The notes below the pieces were generated by a model, which saw only the letters and a program-made list of their open reading frames with translations, did not search any database and was not told the origin of the DNA. Positions 2,709 to 35,987 of a stretch of 64,000 bases of DNA are shown in pieces. The translations under genes were made by a program, and so were the position numbers. The stretch is from an uncultured Pseudomonadota bacterium (GTDB lineage Bacteria; Pseudomonadota; Alphaproteobacteria; Rs-D84). The stretch's first letter is position 1. Every line of letters starts with the position of its first letter. The stretch covers positions 28,028 to 92,027 of the forward strand of contig CADBLE010000008.1 in assembly GCA_902795435.1 (NCBI GenBank). Direction: 5' to 3'.

Positions 2709-3530
2709 TTATTTATCTAAAAATTGTCCCAAAGATGGTAATACGGCCCCACCAATAGATTGCAAATTACCACTGCCACCCATAGCAGAGACCGCTTCTA
2801 TAACAGACCCAGTTCCCGCAGCACCAGTTGTTTGACCAACCGTACCCAATGTCTGTGTTAAAAATCCACCCCACAATTGACGTTTTGCCGCAGTAATTTT
2901 TGCAGGTGCACAACGTTCAGATTTTTCAATCAATTTTGTAACTTTATTTGCTTCTTTGATTGTTAAATCTTCTTCAGCAAAAGGAATCTTGGTAAATACA
3001 TCATACAAATTAGAAAATGTTTTACATTTTTTAGCATTATCTGCTTCACAGATTTTTGCAGAACTCGCCTTTGGATACCCTTCCCAAATCATGTCTTTGT
3101 CAGATTCACTTGAAAATGTAAGATAACAAGATGTTTTACCATCAGATACAAATTCCATATAATCTTTATATGCAGAATCAGCAGAATTATCACCTTCTTC
3201 TGATAATTTACATGGGTCCCCCAAACCAGAAACCGCGTCACTTGCGGAAGATTCCCCTATTTTTGCCCATTCTTTGACCAAATTATTCACGGTATTTAAT
3301 TCATCAGATGTAGGAACACAATCTGCTTCTAATTGTTGCTGTTGTGCACTTAACGCTTTAACAGAACCAACCAAACCGATAACACTTGGCAACAAACTGG
3401 TTGCAGATTCCATTTTGTCTGCTTTCTTTGCAGTCACAGACGCGGCTTTTTTAACCGTAACAGCACCCTGCGACATCACAGGAACCGCAGTCATAAACGC
3501 AATAACAAAAATGGATAATATTTTTTTCAT
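2709..3530 (-). CDS. Secreted hypothetical protein, Cys-containing with Gly-rich C-terminus
   Basis: Signal peptide MKKILSIFVIAFMTAVPVMSQGA; C-terminus TGAAGTGSVIEAVSAMGGSGNLQSIGGAV; no family recognised. Confidence 0.5.
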   Translation of the reverse strand: MKKILSIFVIAFMTAVPVMSQGAVTVKKAASVTAKKADKMESATSLLPSVIGLVGSVKALSAQQQQLEADCVPTSDELNTVNNLVKEWAKIGESSASDAVSGLGDPCKLSEEGDNSADSAYKDYMEFVSDGKTSCYLTFSSESDKDMIWEGYPKASSAKICEADNAKKCKTFSNLYDVFTKIPFAEEDLTIKEANKVTKLIEKSERCAPAKITAAKRQLWGGFLTQTLGTVGQTTGAAGTGSVIEAVSAMGGSGNLQSIGGAVLPSLGQFLDK

Positions 3531-24366: not shown

Positions 24367-24440
24367 TGGTTGGGGCAGCTGGATTCGAACCAACACTAGC
24401 GGAGTCAGAGTCCGATGTTCTACCATTAAACTATGCCCCA
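24367..24440 (-). tRNA. tRNA-Gln (anticodon CUG), CCA encoded
   Basis: Manual cloverleaf of 74 nt. Acceptor TGGGGCA/TGCCCCA, D-arm GTTT-AATGGTA-GAAC, anticodon loop CTCTGAC, T-arm GTTGG-TTCGAAT-CCAGC, discriminator A plus CCA. The U1-A72 pair is typical of bacterial tRNA-Gln. Confidence 0.9.
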
Positions 24441-30073: not shown

Positions 30074-33000
30074 TTAACCTTCGCCGTTGTCTTTATTTAC
30101 CTTTACTGTGAAATTAGCAATATGCTGTTTCAATTCAGTTTTGTATAAATTGTTTGCTTTGGCCTGTTCTACCAATCTGTCAAAGTTTGGATTTACAGAA
30201 CGTGCCGCTGCAAATCTGGTTTCAGATTTCATGAATTCTTCCAATGGGAATGGTGTATCAACATGTGAATCCATTGTCAATGGGTTTTGTTCCCGTGACA
30301 AATTTTCAGGATTAAATCTGTAAAGTGGCCATGCCCCTGTATTCACCAAATTGATTTGATGTTCAACACCGTTCTGTAATGCGAATCCATGTGCAATACA
30401 TGGTGCATACGCCAAAATAATAGATGGGCCATCAAATGCTTCTGCTTCACGGAATGCACGAATCGCTTGTGCTTGGTTTGCACCAATCGCAATTTGCGCA
30501 ACATAGGCACCCGACATCATTGCCATTAAACCTAAATCTTTCTTGGCATGTTCTTTACCGCCAATTGCAAATTTCATAGACGCACCAAATGGTGTTGATT
30601 TAGATTGCTGACCACCGGTGTTGGAATAACCTTCGGTATCCAAAACCAATATATTTACATTTTCACCACTGTGTAAAATATGGTCAACGCCACCGTAACC
30701 AATATCGTATGCCCAACCATCACCACCAACAATCCAAACAGATTTATCAACAATCGCATCTAACAAAGTCAATGCGTATTTAGCGCGTTCATTATCCATT
30801 TGTGATAATTGTTGTTGCAGTGTTTCTTTGATTTGTCTTTGTTGTTCGGTGTCTTTGATATTGAACATATCTTCTACGTTTTCAATACCCAATTCAAACA
30901 ATACACTTTTCAATGCAGATTTTTTCTGGTTCAAAGCGATTCGCATACCTAAACCATATTCTGCATTATCTTCGAACAAAGAATTAGACCATGCCGGACC
31001 GCGCCCGTTTTTATCCGCACACCATGGTGTTGTTGGTAAATTTCCACCGTATATAGATGAACATCCCGTTGCATTTGCAACAACCATTTTATCCCCGAAC
31101 AAATGCGACATTAAACGAACATAAGGTGTTTCGCCACAACCAGCGCACGCCCCAGGAAATTCAAAATAATGAGGCAACAATTCAACATGCTTTGGTATAT
31201 TCAGATTCAATTTTGATTTATCAATGTCTTTGATTTTCAGAGATTCATCAAATGTCTTTTGATTTTTTATACCATCACTCATTGGAATCATTGTCAATGC
31301 ACCAACTGGACAATTTTTCATACACAAACCACACCCCGTACAATCAGATGGTGAAATATTTAATGTGTAATACAAACCATCACCCAATTCAGGTGTTTTC
31401 ATTGGAACAACAGTTATACCGTTTGCCTTTTCACGTTCCATTTCTGATTCATTCATAACCTTGATACGAATCGCACCATGTGGGCACAACATTGAACATT
31501 TTCCACATTGGATACATTTGCTCAAATCACAATTCGCAACGCGTGTTGCCAATGCCCTTTTTTCATAACGCGATGTTCCAACAGGATATTGACCACCACC
31601 AAATGTACCGTCTATCTTGAATCTGGACACAGGAATTTCATCACCCCTGCCCGCTGCCATTTCACCCAATGTGCCGGCAATTTCAGATGGTGCATCCATT
31701 GTCATTGCAGGAACAAAATCAGGTGCAAATTCAGAAACACTGGATGGAAAATCATATTTACGCAAATATGATTCCGCCATATCAACCGCTTTCCAGTTAG
31801 CCTGGACAACTTCGATTCCTTTCTTTTTATATGTTTTTTCAATTGCAACCTTTGCCGCGTCTTTCGCTGTATCTGGGTTTATCACTTTTGTTAAATTAAA
31901 GAAATTCAACATTATAAATGTGTTTATTCTGTTACCCAATCCCAATTCTTGTGCCGCAGCATTCGCGTCTAAGAAATACAAATTCGCACGCATACGAATC
32001 AAATGTTCTTGGGCTGATTTTGGTAAATTCATAAATGCTTCATCTGGTGTCATAGCAGTATTTATCATAACCGTTCCGCCCGCACGCAAAGACGCAAACA
32101 CATCAAATCTTTGTGCAATCATAAAATTAGATACACAGATGAAATCTGCACTTTCTACTAAATATTCACTTTTGATTGGATTTTCAGAAAAACGAATATG
32201 AGATTGTGTTATACCACCAGATTTTTTGGAATCATATACCGCATAAGATTGTGGATATAAATCAGAATTTTCACCAACAATTTTTACAATGTTTTTCACG
32301 GCACCAACTGTTCCGTCACTGCCGATACCATAAAGAATAGCGGTTTTAACATCTTTGTTTTCAATGGTGAAACTTTTATCTGTATCCAATGATAAATGTG
32401 TTAAATCATCTTCAATTCCAACTGTGAAATTATGATGTAATTTATTTTGCATCATGTATTCAACGATTGCTTTGACATCACGTGGTTTAAATTCTTTTGA
32501 CCCCAAACCATATCTGCCACCGAATACAGAAATCTTGGAATCAACGATTGAACGAACATTTTGATACAATGGTTCACCCACAGAACCCGCTTCTTTTGTT
32601 CTGTCTAAAACTGCGATTTGTTCAACTGTTTCTGGCAGTACATCTAAAAACGCTTTCACAGGGAACGGATTAAATAAATGAACACGAATTAAACCAACAC
32701 CCTTTGGTAAAAATTCAATTGTTTCTTCTATTGTTTCGCAACTTGACCCCATTGAAACAATTACATATTTTGCAGATTTATCACCAACATAATCAACCAG
32801 ACCATATTTACGACCGGTCAATTCTGCAAATTTATCCATACATTTTTGGACAATATCTGGCAATTCATCATACAGTGGATTTGCCGCTTCGCGTCCTTGG
32901 AAATAAACATCTGGATTTTGAGCCGTTCCACGAATCTTTGGATTATCAGGATTCATACCACGTGATTTATTCAACGCAACTAAATCAGCCGGCATCATTT

Positions 33001-33571
33001 CACGCAAAACATCATCTTCTATTCTGACCAAAGCAGATTCTTCGTGACTGGTTCTGAAACCATCAAAGAAATGTAAAAATGGAACACGACTTTGTAATGT
33101 CGCAGCATGTGCAATCGCCGCCATATCGTGTGCAGATTGAACATTATGTGAAGACAACATTGCAAACCCAGTTTGACGAACCGCCATAACATCACTGTGG
33201 TCACCAAAAATAGACAACGCATGTGTAGCCAGCGCACGTGCCGCAACATGCATAACGAAAGGTGTCTGTTCACCAGCAATTTTATACATGTTTGGAATCA
33301 TCAACAACAAACCCTGAGATGCTGTAAATGTTGTTGCCAAAGCCCCCATCTGTAACGCACCATGCAACGCACCCGCCGCACCTGCTTCAGATTGCATTTC
33401 TATAATTTCAGGAATCACACCCCAAATATTTTTCTTGTGTTGGAAAGACCATTCGTCTGCCAATTCACCCATAGTAGAACTTGGTGTAATCGGATAAATC
33501 GCCGCACAATCAACACATCTGTACGCAACATCAGCCGCAGCCCAGTTTCCATCAACAATCATTTTTGCCAT
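30074..33571 (-). CDS. nifJ: Pyruvate:ferredoxin (flavodoxin) oxidoreductase, single-chain NifJ/PFOR type
   Basis: Two ferredoxin-type clusters (CIQCGKCSMLCPHGAI and CTGCGLCMKNCPVGAL); TPP-binding GGDGWAYDIGYGG; start trimmed to MAKMIVDGNWAAA (ATG at 33569-33571). Confidence 0.93.
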   Translation of the reverse strand: MAKMIVDGNWAAADVAYRCVDCAAIYPITPSSTMGELADEWSFQHKKNIWGVIPEIIEMQSEAGAAGALHGALQMGALATTFTASQGLLLMIPNMYKIAGEQTPFVMHVAARALATHALSIFGDHSDVMAVRQTGFAMLSSHNVQSAHDMAAIAHAATLQSRVPFLHFFDGFRTSHEESALVRIEDDVLREMMPADLVALNKSRGMNPDNPKIRGTAQNPDVYFQGREAANPLYDELPDIVQKCMDKFAELTGRKYGLVDYVGDKSAKYVIVSMGSSCETIEETIEFLPKGVGLIRVHLFNPFPVKAFLDVLPETVEQIAVLDRTKEAGSVGEPLYQNVRSIVDSKISVFGGRYGLGSKEFKPRDVKAIVEYMMQNKLHHNFTVGIEDDLTHLSLDTDKSFTIENKDVKTAILYGIGSDGTVGAVKNIVKIVGENSDLYPQSYAVYDSKKSGGITQSHIRFSENPIKSEYLVESADFICVSNFMIAQRFDVFASLRAGGTVMINTAMTPDEAFMNLPKSAQEHLIRMRANLYFLDANAAAQELGLGNRINTFIMLNFFNLTKVINPDTAKDAAKVAIEKTYKKKGIEVVQANWKAVDMAESYLRKYDFPSSVSEFAPDFVPAMTMDAPSEIAGTLGEMAAGRGDEIPVSRFKIDGTFGGGQYPVGTSRYEKRALATRVANCDLSKCIQCGKCSMLCPHGAIRIKVMNESEMEREKANGITVVPMKTPELGDGLYYTLNISPSDCTGCGLCMKNCPVGALTMIPMSDGIKNQKTFDESLKIKDIDKSKLNLNIPKHVELLPHYFEFPGACAGCGETPYVRLMSHLFGDKMVVANATGCSSIYGGNLPTTPWCADKNGRGPAWSNSLFEDNAEYGLGMRIALNQKKSALKSVLFELGIENVEDMFNIKDTEQQRQIKETLQQQLSQMDNERAKYALTLLDAIVDKSVWIVGGDGWAYDIGYGGVDHILHSGENVNILVLDTEGYSNTGGQQSKSTPFGASMKFAIGGKEHAKKDLGLMAMMSGAYVAQIAIGANQAQAIRAFREAEAFDGPSIILAYAPCIAHGFALQNGVEHQINLVNTGAWPLYRFNPENLSREQNPLTMDSHVDTPFPLEEFMKSETRFAAARSVNPNFDRLVEQAKANNLYKTELKQHIANFTVKVNKDNGEG

Positions 33572-33732
33572 TTCTTTTACCCCAATTTTTTCAATATTAA
33601 AATTATGAGAAAAATATACATCTTTTATAAATTTAAGGCAATACAAAAAAACAAAACTATAAATAAAAATATTTGCATTAAATTATAACCTTATTTATAA
33701 TTGGGTTGACAATATGAATTATATTGTTGGGG

Positions 33733-33894
33733 TGTAGTTACCCTTGAAAGTAGCGTCTGTGGCAGACGAAAAATGCCTCCAATCTTCATGGTTGGAGGGC
33801 TGTGAATAATACGACATTGTCGTAAAATAAGCACACTATTCTACTTTATAGTAACTAACCTCCAACCACCAATCAATTTTGGTGGTGTTTTTTG
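33733..33894 (+). ncRNA. Structured leader / riboswitch-like attenuator upstream of the PAP2 gene (class unknown)
   Basis: Closing helices 33735-41/33851-57 and 33747-53/33841-47. Hairpins at 33754-68, 33776-98 and 33811-23. GGTTGGAGG (33790-98) can pair with either CCTCCAA (33776-82) or CCTCCAACC (33859-67); the second overlaps the terminator stem 33865-72/33879-86, which is followed by a T-run. Confidence 0.5.
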
Positions 33895-33920
33895 TTTAAC
33901 AAAAACATGGAGAGTTATAA

Positions 33921-34472
33921 ATGAAAAAAACATTACTTATATCAAGTATTGTGTGTTTAGCAATTATATCAAACTCAAATAAAGCTGATGCTTTTGGTGG
34001 TCCGTTCTCTAATTGGGAAAAGGCTGGCGATATGATGCTTGTTATGGCACCAGCATACGCACTTGGTCTGTCTATTATGGCCCAAGATTACAAAGGCGCA
34101 CTTCAACTTGGCGAATCTGTACTTGCAGGACAAATAGCAAGTGAAGGGATAAAGGCATTTAATCTTGAAAGACGCCCAAATAAAAAAGATAAAAAATCTT
34201 TTCCAAGTGGACATGCAGTTGGAGCTTTTTCTGCTGCAATGTTTGTTCATAAAAGATATGGCATAAGATACGCAATCACACCTTATGTTATGAGTGCTTT
34301 TGTCGGATATTCTCGTGTGAGAGCAAAAGCACACTATTGGCACGATGTTGCTGCAGGTGCCGCAATATCAGCATTTTTTACATGGGTACTTGTTGATAAA
34401 TATTTACCAAATGGTGTAAATGTAGAAGCCAACCCAAAATCTGTTCGTGTCGGTTTCAACACACAATTTTAA
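33921..34472 (+). CDS. PAP2 superfamily lipid phosphatase
   Basis: Signal peptide; three acid-phosphatase motifs: K...RP (LERRPNK), PSGH, and SRVRAKAHYWHD. Confidence 0.85.
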   Translation: MKKTLLISSIVCLAIISNSNKADAFGGPFSNWEKAGDMMLVMAPAYALGLSIMAQDYKGALQLGESVLAGQIASEGIKAFNLERRPNKKDKKSFPSGHAVGAFSAAMFVHKRYGIRYAITPYVMSAFVGYSRVRAKAHYWHDVAAGAAISAFFTWVLVDKYLPNGVNVEANPKSVRVGFNTQF

Positions 34473-34505
34473 AATAAAAATAATGGGATTAAAAAAATCC
34501 CATTA

Positions 34506-35987
34506 TCATTTTGATTTTTTATCAGATTTATTTTCAGTTTTTGTTTCTGATTTCTTATCAGATTTTTCTTCAACTTTTTTATCTGATTTTTCTTCGGTTT
34601 TTGTTTCTGTTTTTTCCAGATTTTTTGTTCCGTATTTAGACAACGCACGCACCATATCCATTGCCCTTTGCAATTGATAATCACGTGCATCTTTTTCTTC
34701 ATCTGTTAAATTCAAGAAATCTTCATCATCATCTTTGTCGTCATCTTTTGATTTCTTAGAATCTTTTTTCTTTGATTTGTCCCCTTTCTTAGACGCGTCA
34801 TTTTTCAATGAATTTTTGAAAGTTGCTTCTGTAAACAATGCTTCTTTCTTTTCAAGTGTTTCTACTTTACTCTGTAAAACTTCTACATCTGGGGTGATAC
34901 CTTCGTTTTGGATTGAACGACCACTTGGTGTGTAATAACGTGCAATTGTTATGTGTATTGCAGAACCATCACCCAATGGTTTTTGTTGTTGTACAGACCC
35001 CTTGCCAAAACTCTGTGATCCCATAACGATAGCACGACCGTTATCTTGTAATGCGCCCGCAACAATTTCAGATGCAGATGCGGAACCATGATTTATCAAA
35101 ACAACAATTGGTTTGCCATTTATCAAATCACCTTTTGTTGCGAAACTTCTTTCTATATCTGTTTTTTCTTTGCCACGTGTGGAAACAATTTCGCCTTCGT
35201 CCAAAAATGCATCAGACACTTCAATCGCAGCGGTTAAATATCCACCCGGATTATTACGCAAATCCAAAACATAACCTGCAACTTTTTTCTTTTCTAAATC
35301 TTTTAATGCATCATGTAATTCTTTTGTTGTTGTTGCACCGAAATCAGAAATACGAACATAACCTATCTTGGCAATTTTATCGTCATCTTGTGCAACAGCA
35401 TCTGATTTTTCTGCAAATTTAACAGATTTAACCTTTATAATTGCACGTTTCAGAGTTATAACCTTTGGTTCTTCACCGTCATGAACAATTGTCAATTTAA
35501 CTTTTGTTCCTGGTTTTCCTTTCATTTTTTTGACTGCCTGATTTAATGACATATCAAAAACCTGTTCACCATCAATGTGTGTAATATAATCGCCAGATTG
35601 AATTCCTGCCTTGGCCGCCGGTGTATCGTCAATCGGAGATATTACACGAACAGCCCCCTTGTCACTTGTAATCTGAATTCCCAAACCACCAAATTCACCA
35701 TGTGATTTATCATAAAATTCTTTGAAATCTTCTTTGGATAAATATGAAGAATGTGGGTCCAATGCCGCCAACATACCGTTCATTGCCCCTTCTAACATCT
35801 TTTTTTCGTCGGCTTCTTCTACGAATTTATCGCGTGCCGTTTCAAAAACAAGAGCCAATTTTTTCAATTCGCTATAAATTTGTTCGTCGGTTAAATGCAC
35901 CACAGGTTCATCTTTTTTGCCCTTTTCAGCACTATACACCGAACAAATTGGCATTATCAAAGCAATCAATAGCAATAATTTTTTCAT
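34506..35987 (-). CDS. ctpA: S41 C-terminal processing peptidase (CtpA-like) with Lys/Glu/Asp-rich tail
   Basis: PDZ segment GDYITHIDG, catalytic region GSASASEI...SFGKGSVQ; repetitive C-terminal tail ...EKSDKKVEEKSDKKSETKTENKSDKKSK. Confidence 0.88.
   Translation of the reverse strand: MKKLLLLIALIMPICSVYSAEKGKKDEPVVHLTDEQIYSELKKLALVFETARDKFVEEADEKKMLEGAMNGMLAALDPHSSYLSKEDFKEFYDKSHGEFGGLGIQITSDKGAVRVISPIDDTPAAKAGIQSGDYITHIDGEQVFDMSLNQAVKKMKGKPGTKVKLTIVHDGEEPKVITLKRAIIKVKSVKFAEKSDAVAQDDDKIAKIGYVRISDFGATTTKELHDALKDLEKKKVAGYVLDLRNNPGGYLTAAIEVSDAFLDEGEIVSTRGKEKTDIERSFATKGDLINGKPIVVLINHGSASASEIVAGALQDNGRAIVMGSQSFGKGSVQQQKPLGDGSAIHITIARYYTPSGRSIQNEGITPDVEVLQSKVETLEKKEALFTEATFKNSLKNDASKKGDKSKKKDSKKSKDDDKDDDEDFLNLTDEEKDARDYQLQRAMDMVRALSKYGTKNLEKTETKTEEKSDKKVEEKSDKKSETKTENKSDKKSK

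Follow-up and report, generated by a model that had tools for sequence, protein, structure and literature searches.

What does the leader in front of a PAP2 phosphatase gene do in an uncultured alphaproteobacterium of the order Rs-D84? The gene lies in a stretch of 64,000 nucleotides (contig CADBLE010000008.1 of assembly GCA_902795435.1, positions 28,028 to 92,027 of the forward strand), referred to here as the window. A preliminary description of the window had taken this leader for an unclassified riboswitch-like attenuator, in which terminator and antiterminator pairings exclude each other on a multi-helix junction. We report here that the leader is a structured RNA with two alternative folds and that both conformers covary, which upholds the proposed layout. 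The leader is probably a cis-acting, promoter-proximal transcription attenuator that is off by default. In addition, sequence and structure comparisons suggest, with moderate confidence, that it belongs to a remote, extended and terminator-bearing branch of the Rfam family RF02221 (sRNA-Xcc1), the link being a graded one. All of the data are computational, drawn from assemblies of uncultured organisms.

The PAP2 protein of the window has more than 120 relatives, nearly all in uncultured gut Alphaproteobacteria. A scan of one genome per species gave 80 PAP2 loci, mostly in assemblies of Candidatus Enterousia and the order Rs-D84 from rumen, faeces and termite gut; one of these (L001) is 99% identical to the window. 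The leader was found 5' of PAP2 in a dozen loci by nhmmer, and RNAalifold returned 46 pairs from nine sequences, with compensatory changes in 20. Covariance model R1 consists of those nine sequences, R2 of a broader set, and R3 of the 3' domains of 45 copies of the window's own subtype (subtype A) alone, in the readthrough fold; the E-values of the models are roughly calibrated. The element of the window scored 169.1 bits (E = 3e-40) with R1 and 149.1 bits with R2 on the + strand, and its reverse strand just 13.7 bits. Metagenome contigs were scanned with the pattern GGTTGGAG, 40-70 nucleotides, CTCCARCCACC, and then with the model, which yielded 76 further copies. The leader and its first, terminator-permissive fold comprise the following features, in window coordinates.

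33672 to 33701, + strand: sigma-70-like promoter, TTTGCA-18 nucleotides-TATAAT, by consensus scan
33705 to 33895, + strand: whole leader element, the extent of the covariance-model match
33708 to 33728, + strand: P0, a 5'-terminal hairpin of 9 base pairs found in both conformers, 96.2% paired, double changes in 9 of 9 pairs
33729 to 33733 with 33858 to 33862, + strand: P1x, GGGGU / ACCUC, a 5-base-pair extension of P1 in the terminator-permissive conformer, 96% paired
33735 to 33741 with 33851 to 33857, + strand: P1, TAGTTAC / GTAACTA, 93.5% paired, double changes in every pair
33747 to 33753 with 33841 to 33847, + strand: P2, AAAGTAG / CTACTTT, 97.6% paired, double changes in 7 of 7 pairs
33754 to 33768, + strand: P2a, a hairpin of variable length with the conserved base YGUC...GACR, forming a hairpin of at least 4 base pairs in 72 of 77 distinct copies
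33776 to 33798, + strand: P3, a hairpin of CCUCCAAUC and GGUUGGAGG, 90.5% paired, its 3' arm doubling as 5' strand of the antiterminator
33801 to 33835, + strand: P4, with a UGUG/CACA stem, an A/U-rich internal loop (AAUAAUA / UAAAAUAAG) and an inner hairpin at 33811-23
33865 to 33893, + strand: intrinsic terminator with an 8-base-pair stem, a 6-nucleotide loop and then GUUUUUU, by terminator scan
33909 to 33912 and 33921 to 34472, + strand: Shine-Dalgarno sequence GGAG and PAP2 phosphatase gene, 183 amino acids with an N-terminal signal-like segment

From the position of the promoter, transcription is predicted to start at about 33706-08, which is the 5' base of P0, and the leader RNA from promoter to terminator would be about 185 nucleotides long. 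By eye, TTGAC-like -35 boxes and -10 boxes are equally far upstream in other copies of the element. The terminator arms (ACCACCAA, 33865-72, and TTGGTGGT, 33879-86) are followed by a T6 run at 33888-93, and 27 nucleotides separate the terminator from the ATG of PAP2 at 33921; this terminator, like P1, P2, P2a, P3 and the inner hairpin of P4, is present exactly where the preliminary description had placed it. That description did not include P0, the promoter, or two helices of the second fold described below (aP1, 33729-44; aP2, 33835-52). A promoter scan of the interval from terminator to PAP2 start returned no promoter-like site. An internal promoter before PAP2 was considered on the strength of a TTGAAT in the P4 loop and rejected, as the scan found none and by eye the motif has no consistently spaced -10 box. 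Attenuation by a leader peptide was also rejected: the sole short open reading frame (ATG 33715, 7 codons) is missing in close homologues.

The terminator-permissive fold is backed by covariation. Among 80 distinct subtype-A homologues, 90.5% of cells in the alignment are paired, as compared with 71.3% in shuffles and 37-50% when partners are slid, and both sides have changed in 42 of the 49 pairs. Much the same is seen in 21 sequences that span all subtypes: pairing is 90.5%, falls to 69.3% in shuffles and to 35-47% when partners are slid, and 38/49 pairs have both-side changes. In the 80 sequences, every Watson-Crick pair type occurs at most positions of P0, P1 and P2, and the terminator is 91.3% paired with double changes in 6/8 of its pairs. 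P4 is supported by per-sequence folds and by the Rfam alignment only, the column-wise count having failed; its pairing by column is just 52% because the register of the stem shifts between copies. Two unpaired segments are conserved, namely the loop motif GAAUA...AAUAAG of P4 in the window's subtype and an A-rich linker at 33769-75, directly 3' of P2a. The loops of P2a vary. In one subgroup they are GNRA loops (GUGA, GGGA, GCGA or GAGA, in L015, L035, L008, L012, L007 and about 15 metagenomic copies), and a GNRA tetraloop with varying middle bases is often a sign of a tertiary contact; the loop in the window is UGG, not GNRA.

The minimum-energy fold of 33730-33900 recovers these helices at -58.2 kcal/mol, as compared with -35.6 +/- 4.0 kcal/mol for dinucleotide shuffles (z = -5.69), and none of the 200 shuffles was as stable. 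The reverse strand folds well too (z = -5.17), so that energy alone leaves the strand unsettled, and it is the G-U pairs and the scores of 169 versus 13.7 bits that settle it as the + strand. P0 was likewise assigned to the + strand owing to its frequent G-U pairs. The possibility that P0 is an operator palindrome acting as DNA was ruled out by its covariation and by the presence of G-U pairs on the + strand only.

A second fold of the window was found by forcing the antiterminator pairing, upon which two further helices, aP1 and aP2, appeared. As the preliminary description had noticed, GGTTGGAGG (33790-98) is complementary to CCTCCAACC (33859-67); the pairing in fact extends to 10 base pairs, 33789-98 with 33859-68. 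The elements of this readthrough conformer are as follows.

33859 to 33868, + strand: distal copy Y, CCUCCAACCA, which pairs with 33789-98 and overlaps the first 4 nucleotides of the terminator stem
33729 to 33744, + strand: aP1, GGGGUG (33729-34) / UACCCU (33739-44), with the 5' strand of P1 in its loop
33835 to 33852, + strand: aP2, ACUAU (33835-39) / AUAGU (33848-52), with the 3' strand of P2 in its loop

The antiterminator helix is 89.3% paired, with double changes in 6 of 9 pairs, in the 21 sequences in which the three subtypes are mixed. Both arms of P3 change between subtypes in concert with the distal copy Y (CUCCAAC, UCCCGAC and CCUCCUG); the forms are as follows.

P3 5' arm CUCCAAYC, P3 3' arm GGUUGGAG, distal copy Y CUCCAACC
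P3 5' arm GUCCCGACC, P3 3' arm GGUCGGGAU, distal copy Y CUCCCGACC
P3 5' arm UCCCGACA, P3 3' arm UGUCGGGAAG, distal copy Y CUUCCCGACA
P3 5' arm CCCCCUGC, P3 3' arm CAGGAGG, distal copy Y CCUCCUGC

In subtype C, the antiterminator has 10 base pairs and P3 has 8, and the extra nucleotides can be paired by Y alone. One pair of aP1 changes from G-C to A-U in 9 sequences, and equivalents of this helix exist elsewhere, i.e. UUUGG/CCAAA in subtype B and GGUG/CACC in phage copies of RF02221. When the 3' domains of 45 sequences were aligned, aP2 proved to be 98.7% paired, and the middle pair was A-U in 23 of them, U-A in 22 and unpaired in none. The fact that a nucleotide has two partners accounts for nearly all of the conserved nucleotides in the outer parts of the element. 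By computed energies, the readthrough fold lies 7.3 kcal/mol above the terminator-permissive fold in the window; the median gap over 70 copies is 8.6 kcal/mol, and the antiterminator is part of the minimum-energy fold in only 3 of these 70. The energies thus favor the terminator-permissive fold, and the default would be termination.

The following mechanism is proposed. The sigma-70-like promoter of the leader would start an RNA of about 185 nucleotides. In the first fold, the thermodynamic default, P0 would be followed by a long P1x/P1/P2 stem, which together with P2a, P3 and P4 would make up a four-way junction. With GGUUGGAGG locked inside P3, the terminator at 33865-93 would form, and transcription would stop 27 nucleotides before PAP2 with release of a small RNA. 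In the second fold, the loops of aP1 and aP2 would hold the 5' strand of P1 and the 3' strand of P2, respectively, and the 3' arm of P3 would pair with the downstream copy CCUCCAACCA, giving a three-way junction of antiterminator helix, P4 and aP2. Since this pairing would take 4 nucleotides of the terminator stem, the polymerase would continue into PAP2. Some factor would tip the balance to "on" by stabilizing the three-way junction, thereby paying the approximately 7-9 kcal/mol. We infer both that termination and readthrough follow the two folds and that such a factor exists; a small molecule or ion, a protein, or the kinetics of transcription are candidates. A specific partner is suggested by the unpaired motifs conserved in the P4 loop and in the A-rich linker, and a universal or self-contained trigger by the spread of the family over many hosts and mobile elements.

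Candidatus Enterousia and its relatives in Rs-D84 have reduced, fermentative genomes of less than about 1 Mb (PMC12306168). With R1 and R2, about 50 of the 80 loci have the element directly 5' of PAP2, and about 30 gave no match there (e.g. L004, L006, L009, L010, L011 and L016-L020); some of these model-negative loci encode proteins that are 60-72% identical to the PAP2 of the window. The element is kept 5' of orthologous PAP2 genes whose proteins share just 45-80% identity. Three subtypes, A (that of the window), B and C, have a common architecture and different sequences, and all three precede orthologous PAP2 genes. Two subtypes coexist in the genomes of L021 and L036, where PAP2 is preceded by subtype B and a gene for a Cys-rich secreted protein by subtype A. 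Some Enterousia genomes have two PAP2 paralogues (in tandem at L036, 1661-3037, + strand; at L002 and L035 of assembly JAFXPG01), each of which, where checked, is preceded by a separate leader copy; the two copies can differ in subtype.

The downstream genes are by no means confined to PAP2. Among 71 metagenomic copies that do not lie at contig ends, 56 are followed within 70 nucleotides (median 23) by a ribosome-binding site and the start of an open reading frame on the same strand, and nine by another copy, as compared with 2/74 in a reverse-orientation control. The largest clusters of downstream genes encode secreted Cys-rich protein families, one of them with an ephrin-receptor-like Cys repeat; others encode XRE helix-turn-helix regulators, an outer-membrane barrel protein, a UvrD helicase, a UDG-family (uracil-DNA-glycosylase) protein and small uncharacterized proteins. 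The idea of a riboswitch devoted to PAP2 is therefore not borne out, as the cassette precedes many unrelated genes and no single metabolite is implied. The window itself has one copy in 64 kb, no second one being found by blastn, nhmmer or R2. Up to five copies in 6.7 kb were found in the sampled loci, some of them in tandem arrays of two to four complete copies, each with its own -35/-10 promoter straight after the preceding terminator.

L144, 154 to 1004, + strand: tandem array of four copies
L118, 6309 to 6740, - strand: tandem array of two copies
L176, 872 to 1292, + strand: tandem array of two copies
L154, 605 to 1012, + strand: tandem array of two copies
L186, 4110 to 4528, - strand: tandem array of two copies
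L194, 645 to 1118, - strand: tandem array
L084, 398 to 828, + strand: tandem array

The arrays that were followed lie 5' of XRE regulators or of a conserved, uncharacterized protein of 84-92 amino acids with the motif PAPLI.KL..FY...PDY.TGIV.I.ILARI.HTE.DKF.

Does the leader belong to a known RNA family? A scan against Rfam and a test for covariation had both been proposed in the preliminary description. The latter was positive for both conformers. As to the former, a scan of the whole window at gathering thresholds returned a single match, one tRNA at 24370-24440 on the - strand, and nothing for the leader; nor did the interval 33500-34100 match anything at E <= 10 beyond AfaR, MCS4 and ARRPOF at chance level. 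The label "unclassified" thus holds for the window sequence itself, which matches no family, but not for its sister leaders, which resemble RF02221 at 36-52.7 bits, the gathering threshold of that family being 53 bits. The scores of the subtype-C PAP2 leaders are 52.7 (L013), 42.1 (L053), 41.4 (L049 and L060 each), 40.9 (L058) and 36.3 bits (L014), and one subtype-A copy reached 31.1 bits; a confirmed copy in an E. coli prophage scores 79.8 bits. The alignment of subtype C to RF02221 is in register, in that the outer helix corresponds to the antiterminator, hairpin 1 to P4 and hairpin 2 to aP2. The window can form the same type of three-way junction, with 33789-98 x 33859-68 enclosing P4 (33801-35) and aP2 (33835-52). 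The internal loop of hairpin 1 in RF02221 has AUACAAUA on its 5' side and GAA(UA) on its 3' side, and subtype C has AUACAAUA...AAAAG; the loop is AAUAAUA / UAAAAUAAG in the window and GAAUAUAUUGAAUAAG in most subtype-A copies, which is similar and not identical, and it is absent from subtype B.

The comparison also works in the opposite direction. R3 matched the Stx-phage locus L202 at 2587-2665 (21.7 bits, E = 0.004) and the E. coli prophage locus L201 at 2986-3064 (16.7 bits, E = 0.075), in both cases at the RF02221 coordinates, and these were the first and fourth best matches in 64 kb. The full-length model R2 gave 6.9 bits with the E. coli prophage copy, which is not significant (E = 0.27); the alignment is nonetheless colinear, and it led to the equivalents of P1, P2 and aP1 in the phage copies. 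A plasmid collection searched with the RF02221 consensus gave one partial match, which was uninformative. In the annotated records examined, the phage copies of RF02221 sit 30-45 nucleotides 5' of antirepressor-type genes.

L201, 2898 to 3112: RF02221 copy of an E. coli prophage, 5' of a BRO-N gene
L202, 2501 to 2715: RF02221 copy of Stx phage phiON-2011, 5' of antB1
L204, 440 to 735: RF02221 copy of Acinetobacter phage 4316, 5' of a KilA-N gene
L205, 440 to 740: RF02221 copy of Pasteurella phage Pmp3, 5' of Ant

These copies have a 5' domain of about 90 nucleotides, outside the 87-nucleotide Rfam model, that is able to refold the junction. It contains an aP1 (GGUG-CUCAAAA-CACC), a P1 (CUCAAAAC / GUUUUGAG), a P2 that covaries (UGCAAAG/CUUUGCA, UACGAAG/CUUCGUA and CCAAAAA/UUUUUGG) and an upstream copy of the strand of the outer helix. 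A hairpin stands after Y in the phage copies that were read, and no U-tract follows it, so that the canonical intrinsic terminator belongs to the Enterousia branch. The loop of the phage hairpin after the junction is CUCAAAA, the same as that of the upstream aP1. The bistable design therefore seems general to the RF02221 family, of which Rfam would capture one conformer of the 3' half. Just 5' of the E. coli prophage copy (L201, 2772-2847, + strand), a terminator-like hairpin scores 44.5 bits against the Rfam family ohsC_RNA, whose threshold is 50. The ohsC RNA is a type I antitoxin small RNA (sRNA).

In Xanthomonas, sRNA-Xcc1 was seen as an 88-nucleotide RNA by Northern blot and rapid amplification of cDNA ends, and was regarded as trans-acting (PMC2996969). 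It stands 5' of symE in the most widespread integron cassette of that genus (bioRxiv 10.1101/2025.06.18.660453), and Xylella has seven copies, five of them clustered (PMC12189769). The family has been catalogued since 2010-2012 and annotated in genomes, phages and integrons without an accepted mechanism, and our search of the literature found no paper that proposes a cis-acting switch for it, nor any description of a PAP2 riboswitch or an Enterousia RNA. The element is therefore not categorically new, as its family is already in Rfam; the cis-acting bistable reading and the expansion in Rs-D84 appear to be undescribed.

Several observations weigh against the reading of the leader as a cis-acting, default-off attenuator that branches from RF02221. 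The antiterminator takes only 4 of the 8 terminator pairs, and the readthrough fold, being 7-9 kcal/mol less stable by nearest-neighbor energies, would need help. The transcription start, termination at 33893 and readthrough are predictions, and tandem, promoter-bearing copies without a gene between them are unexpected for a simple cis switch. The scanning pattern fixes parts of P3, Y and the terminator, so that conservation there is partly built in for the 76 metagenomic copies, and the covariation evidence for P3, antiterminator and terminator comes from the smaller protein-anchored set and from second copies at the same loci. The covariance-model alignments lean to the terminator-permissive structure. 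By score, the window fails membership in RF02221 (no match at E <= 10 in 33500-34100), and the reciprocal E-values of R3 are modest and roughly calibrated.

Which other explanations could account for the leader? A classical metabolite or ion riboswitch, with its ligand pocket in the four-way junction (off) or in the sRNA-Xcc1-like three-way junction (on), is possible rather than probable. A covarying, structured domain in the 5' untranslated region was found, as was an expression platform with a 4-nucleotide overlap, and the aptamer-like junction and this platform are backed by covariation. Unpaired motifs are conserved in the A-rich linker after P2a, in the P4 loop (GAAUA...AAUAAG) and in the AUACAAUA...GAA of subtype C and RF02221, and a gap of 7-9 kcal/mol is of a size that a tight ligand can pay. 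Class I and II cyclic di-GMP (c-di-GMP) riboswitches occur in many copies before surface and secreted proteins. However, the downstream genes, which include phage antirepressors, are heterogeneous, share no metabolic theme and indicate no single metabolite. Junction and loop sequences differ among A, B and C before orthologous PAP2 genes, subtype B is without the internal loop of P4, promoter-bearing tandem copies are unusual for riboswitches, and no known riboswitch family matches. The heterogeneous regulon, the subtype differences before orthologous genes and the stand-alone tandem copies thus argue against a classical metabolite riboswitch. A role for tRNA, suggested by the ACCACCA arm of the terminator, was rejected, as no T-box matched at E <= 10, the CCACCA/UGGUGG arms vary elsewhere (GACUUCUA, CCAUCUGA) and the downstream genes are unrelated to tRNA charging. 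Of the earlier inference of a riboswitch or a protein- or tRNA-responsive attenuator, the switchable layout therefore stands; T-box sensing is unmatched, conservation of the junction differs between subtypes, and a riboswitch is one of several triggers that may be considered. A further view is that the leader is an attenuator or insulator without an effector, in which readthrough is low by a fixed or kinetic rule (polymerase speed, nucleoside triphosphate pools, NusA/NusG) and the 5' end is stabilized. We regard this as doubtful. It would suit the highly diverse downstream genes, and the very different hosts and elements concerned (Enterousia chromosomes; enterobacterial, Acinetobacter and Pasteurella phages; Xanthomonas integrons, bioRxiv 10.1101/2025.06.18.660453) favor a host-independent mechanism; moreover, the local hairpins aP1, P3, P4 and aP2 would form first as the RNA is transcribed, and a kinetic decision may be possible in the approximately 20 nucleotides from Y to the 3' arm of the terminator. 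Two elaborate covarying folds nevertheless exceed the needs of a fixed attenuator, and the conserved unpaired motifs suggest a specific binding partner.

A gene family for a trans-acting sRNA, in which the C-rich CCUCC/UCCC strand before the terminator would be a seed against ribosome-binding sites and the position 5' of PAP2 would be incidental or secondary, is unlikely. CCUCC is similar to the anti-Shine-Dalgarno seeds found in known sRNA families. Every copy comes with a promoter and an intrinsic terminator of its own, even in tandem arrays without an intervening gene, and with termination as the computed default an RNA of about 185 nucleotides should accumulate. In Xanthomonas, sRNA-Xcc1 is seen as an 88-nucleotide RNA (PMC2996969), and it occurs in clusters in Xylella (PMC12189769). 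Orientation and spacing are, however, those of a leader (56/71 vs control 2/74), and there is neither room nor signal for another promoter before PAP2. The putative seed is a strand of a covarying intramolecular helix, and its sequence differs within one genome (L036 and L021, with A and B); a shared trans target of the C-rich motif was rejected as the main function since subtypes with different motifs coexist there. A dual role, as an attenuator and as the source of a released sRNA of about 185 nucleotides, is possible. It is highly improbable that the element is a dispersed repeat or miniature mobile element of the Correia, ERIC or BOX type, whose promoter and terminator-like palindrome make no switch. 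The many copies per locus set, the tandem arrays and the mobile-element-type genes nearby would fit such a repeat, but the copies are highly diverged with compensatory changes at nearly every position of P0, P1 and P2, their orientation and distance to the start codon are fixed, the window has a single copy, and the element is retained 5' of orthologous PAP2 genes whose proteins have diverged to 45-80% identity.

The cis-acting attenuator may be compared with several known systems. Like the PyrR-controlled pyr leaders and terminator/antiterminator riboswitches, it is a promoter-proximal 5' untranslated region with three tiers of exclusive helices, i.e. P3/P1/P2 as anti-antiterminator, 33789-98 x 33859-68 as antiterminator and 33865-86 as terminator. 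Unlike them, it has no family match and a heterogeneous regulon, and both of its conformers are multi-helix structures rather than an aptamer and a simple hairpin. In C4 RNA of phages P1 and P7 and in IsrK of Salmonella (RF01695, RF01394), which are encoded in leaders and control antirepressor genes, a central segment is flanked by upstream and downstream complementary copies, and short terminated and long readthrough isoforms are possible. The phage copies of sRNA-Xcc1 likewise lead antirepressor or regulator genes. C4 and IsrK, however, have another fold, their Rfam models matched none of the copies examined, and since the complementary segments of the Enterousia copies differ within a single genome, nothing there points to action in trans. 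In Xylella, C4/IsrK families are annotated next to an sRNA-Xcc1 copy (PMC12189769). A further likeness is to the c-di-GMP class I and II and cyclic GMP-AMP (cGAMP) riboswitches. These stand in many copies, sometimes in tandem, before secreted, surface and regulatory genes; no Rfam sequence or structure match links them to the present element.

With sRNA-Xcc1 itself, the element shares an outer helix that encloses a hairpin with an A/U-rich internal loop and a second short hairpin, followed by a C-rich tail, and it is likewise multi-copy, clustered and just 5' of a gene (PMC12189769; bioRxiv 10.1101/2025.06.18.660453). It differs in being about 185 rather than 87 nucleotides long, with a 5' domain that can refold the junction, in ending in a canonical intrinsic terminator, which the phage copies do not have, and in being chromosomal and located before envelope genes rather than integron or prophage cargo. 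If the bistable reading is true, sRNA-Xcc1 as defined in Rfam would be the antiterminator conformer of a longer bistable leader. As regards annotation, the Enterousia branch escapes the Rfam model, which also leaves out the 5' half of the functional unit. In Enterousia/Rs-D84 (uncultured, animal-gut, genomes of less than about 1 Mb), one leader cassette precedes genes for a lipid phosphatase, Cys-rich proteins, regulators and DNA repair. It may thus represent a large layer of RNA-based control in gut symbionts that probably have few other regulators, and may provide a handle on how their surface is controlled. The fully covarying two-state design is suited to in vitro study.

A more speculative extension, which we put forward tentatively, is that the three-way junction of sRNA-Xcc1 is the sensor of an undescribed riboswitch-like class that switches transcription on in response to a universal small molecule, second messenger or ion. 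In Rs-D84 it would have been expanded into a genome-wide RNA regulon for Cys-rich surface proteins and for envelope lipid remodeling through PAP2, and the sensor would also serve in phages and integrons, where it would gate the genes of antirepressors and toxins. If so, an orphan "sRNA" family known since 2010 would become a cis-regulatory sensor.

Some features of the neighboring genes may be added. The PAP2 assignment is that of Pfam (PF01569, E = 1.8e-15); NCBIfam gave weak similarity alone, to the undecaprenyl-diphosphatase SepP and the lipid A 1-phosphatase LpxE. The protein ends in ...VRVGFNTQF, with a terminal F that is invariant across 28 relatives, and this end resembles the C-terminal signature of outer-membrane proteins. 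Between PAP2 and a convergent S41 protease gene, a perfect palindrome of 11-12 base pairs (ATAATGGGATT...AATCCCATTAT, 34479-34507, both strands) is called as a terminator on both strands and looks like a bidirectional terminator. The S41/PDZ carboxy-terminal protease (34506-35987, - strand) has a long low-complexity C-terminal tail rich in Lys, Asp, Glu and Ser, which corresponds to T-rich direct repeats at 34520-34620 on the opposite strand. On the other side of the leader, the divergent gene at 30074-33646 (- strand) encodes a pyruvate:ferredoxin (flavodoxin) oxidoreductase of 1190 amino acids (TIGR02176, 1455 bits), which is consistent with an anaerobic fermentative lifestyle.

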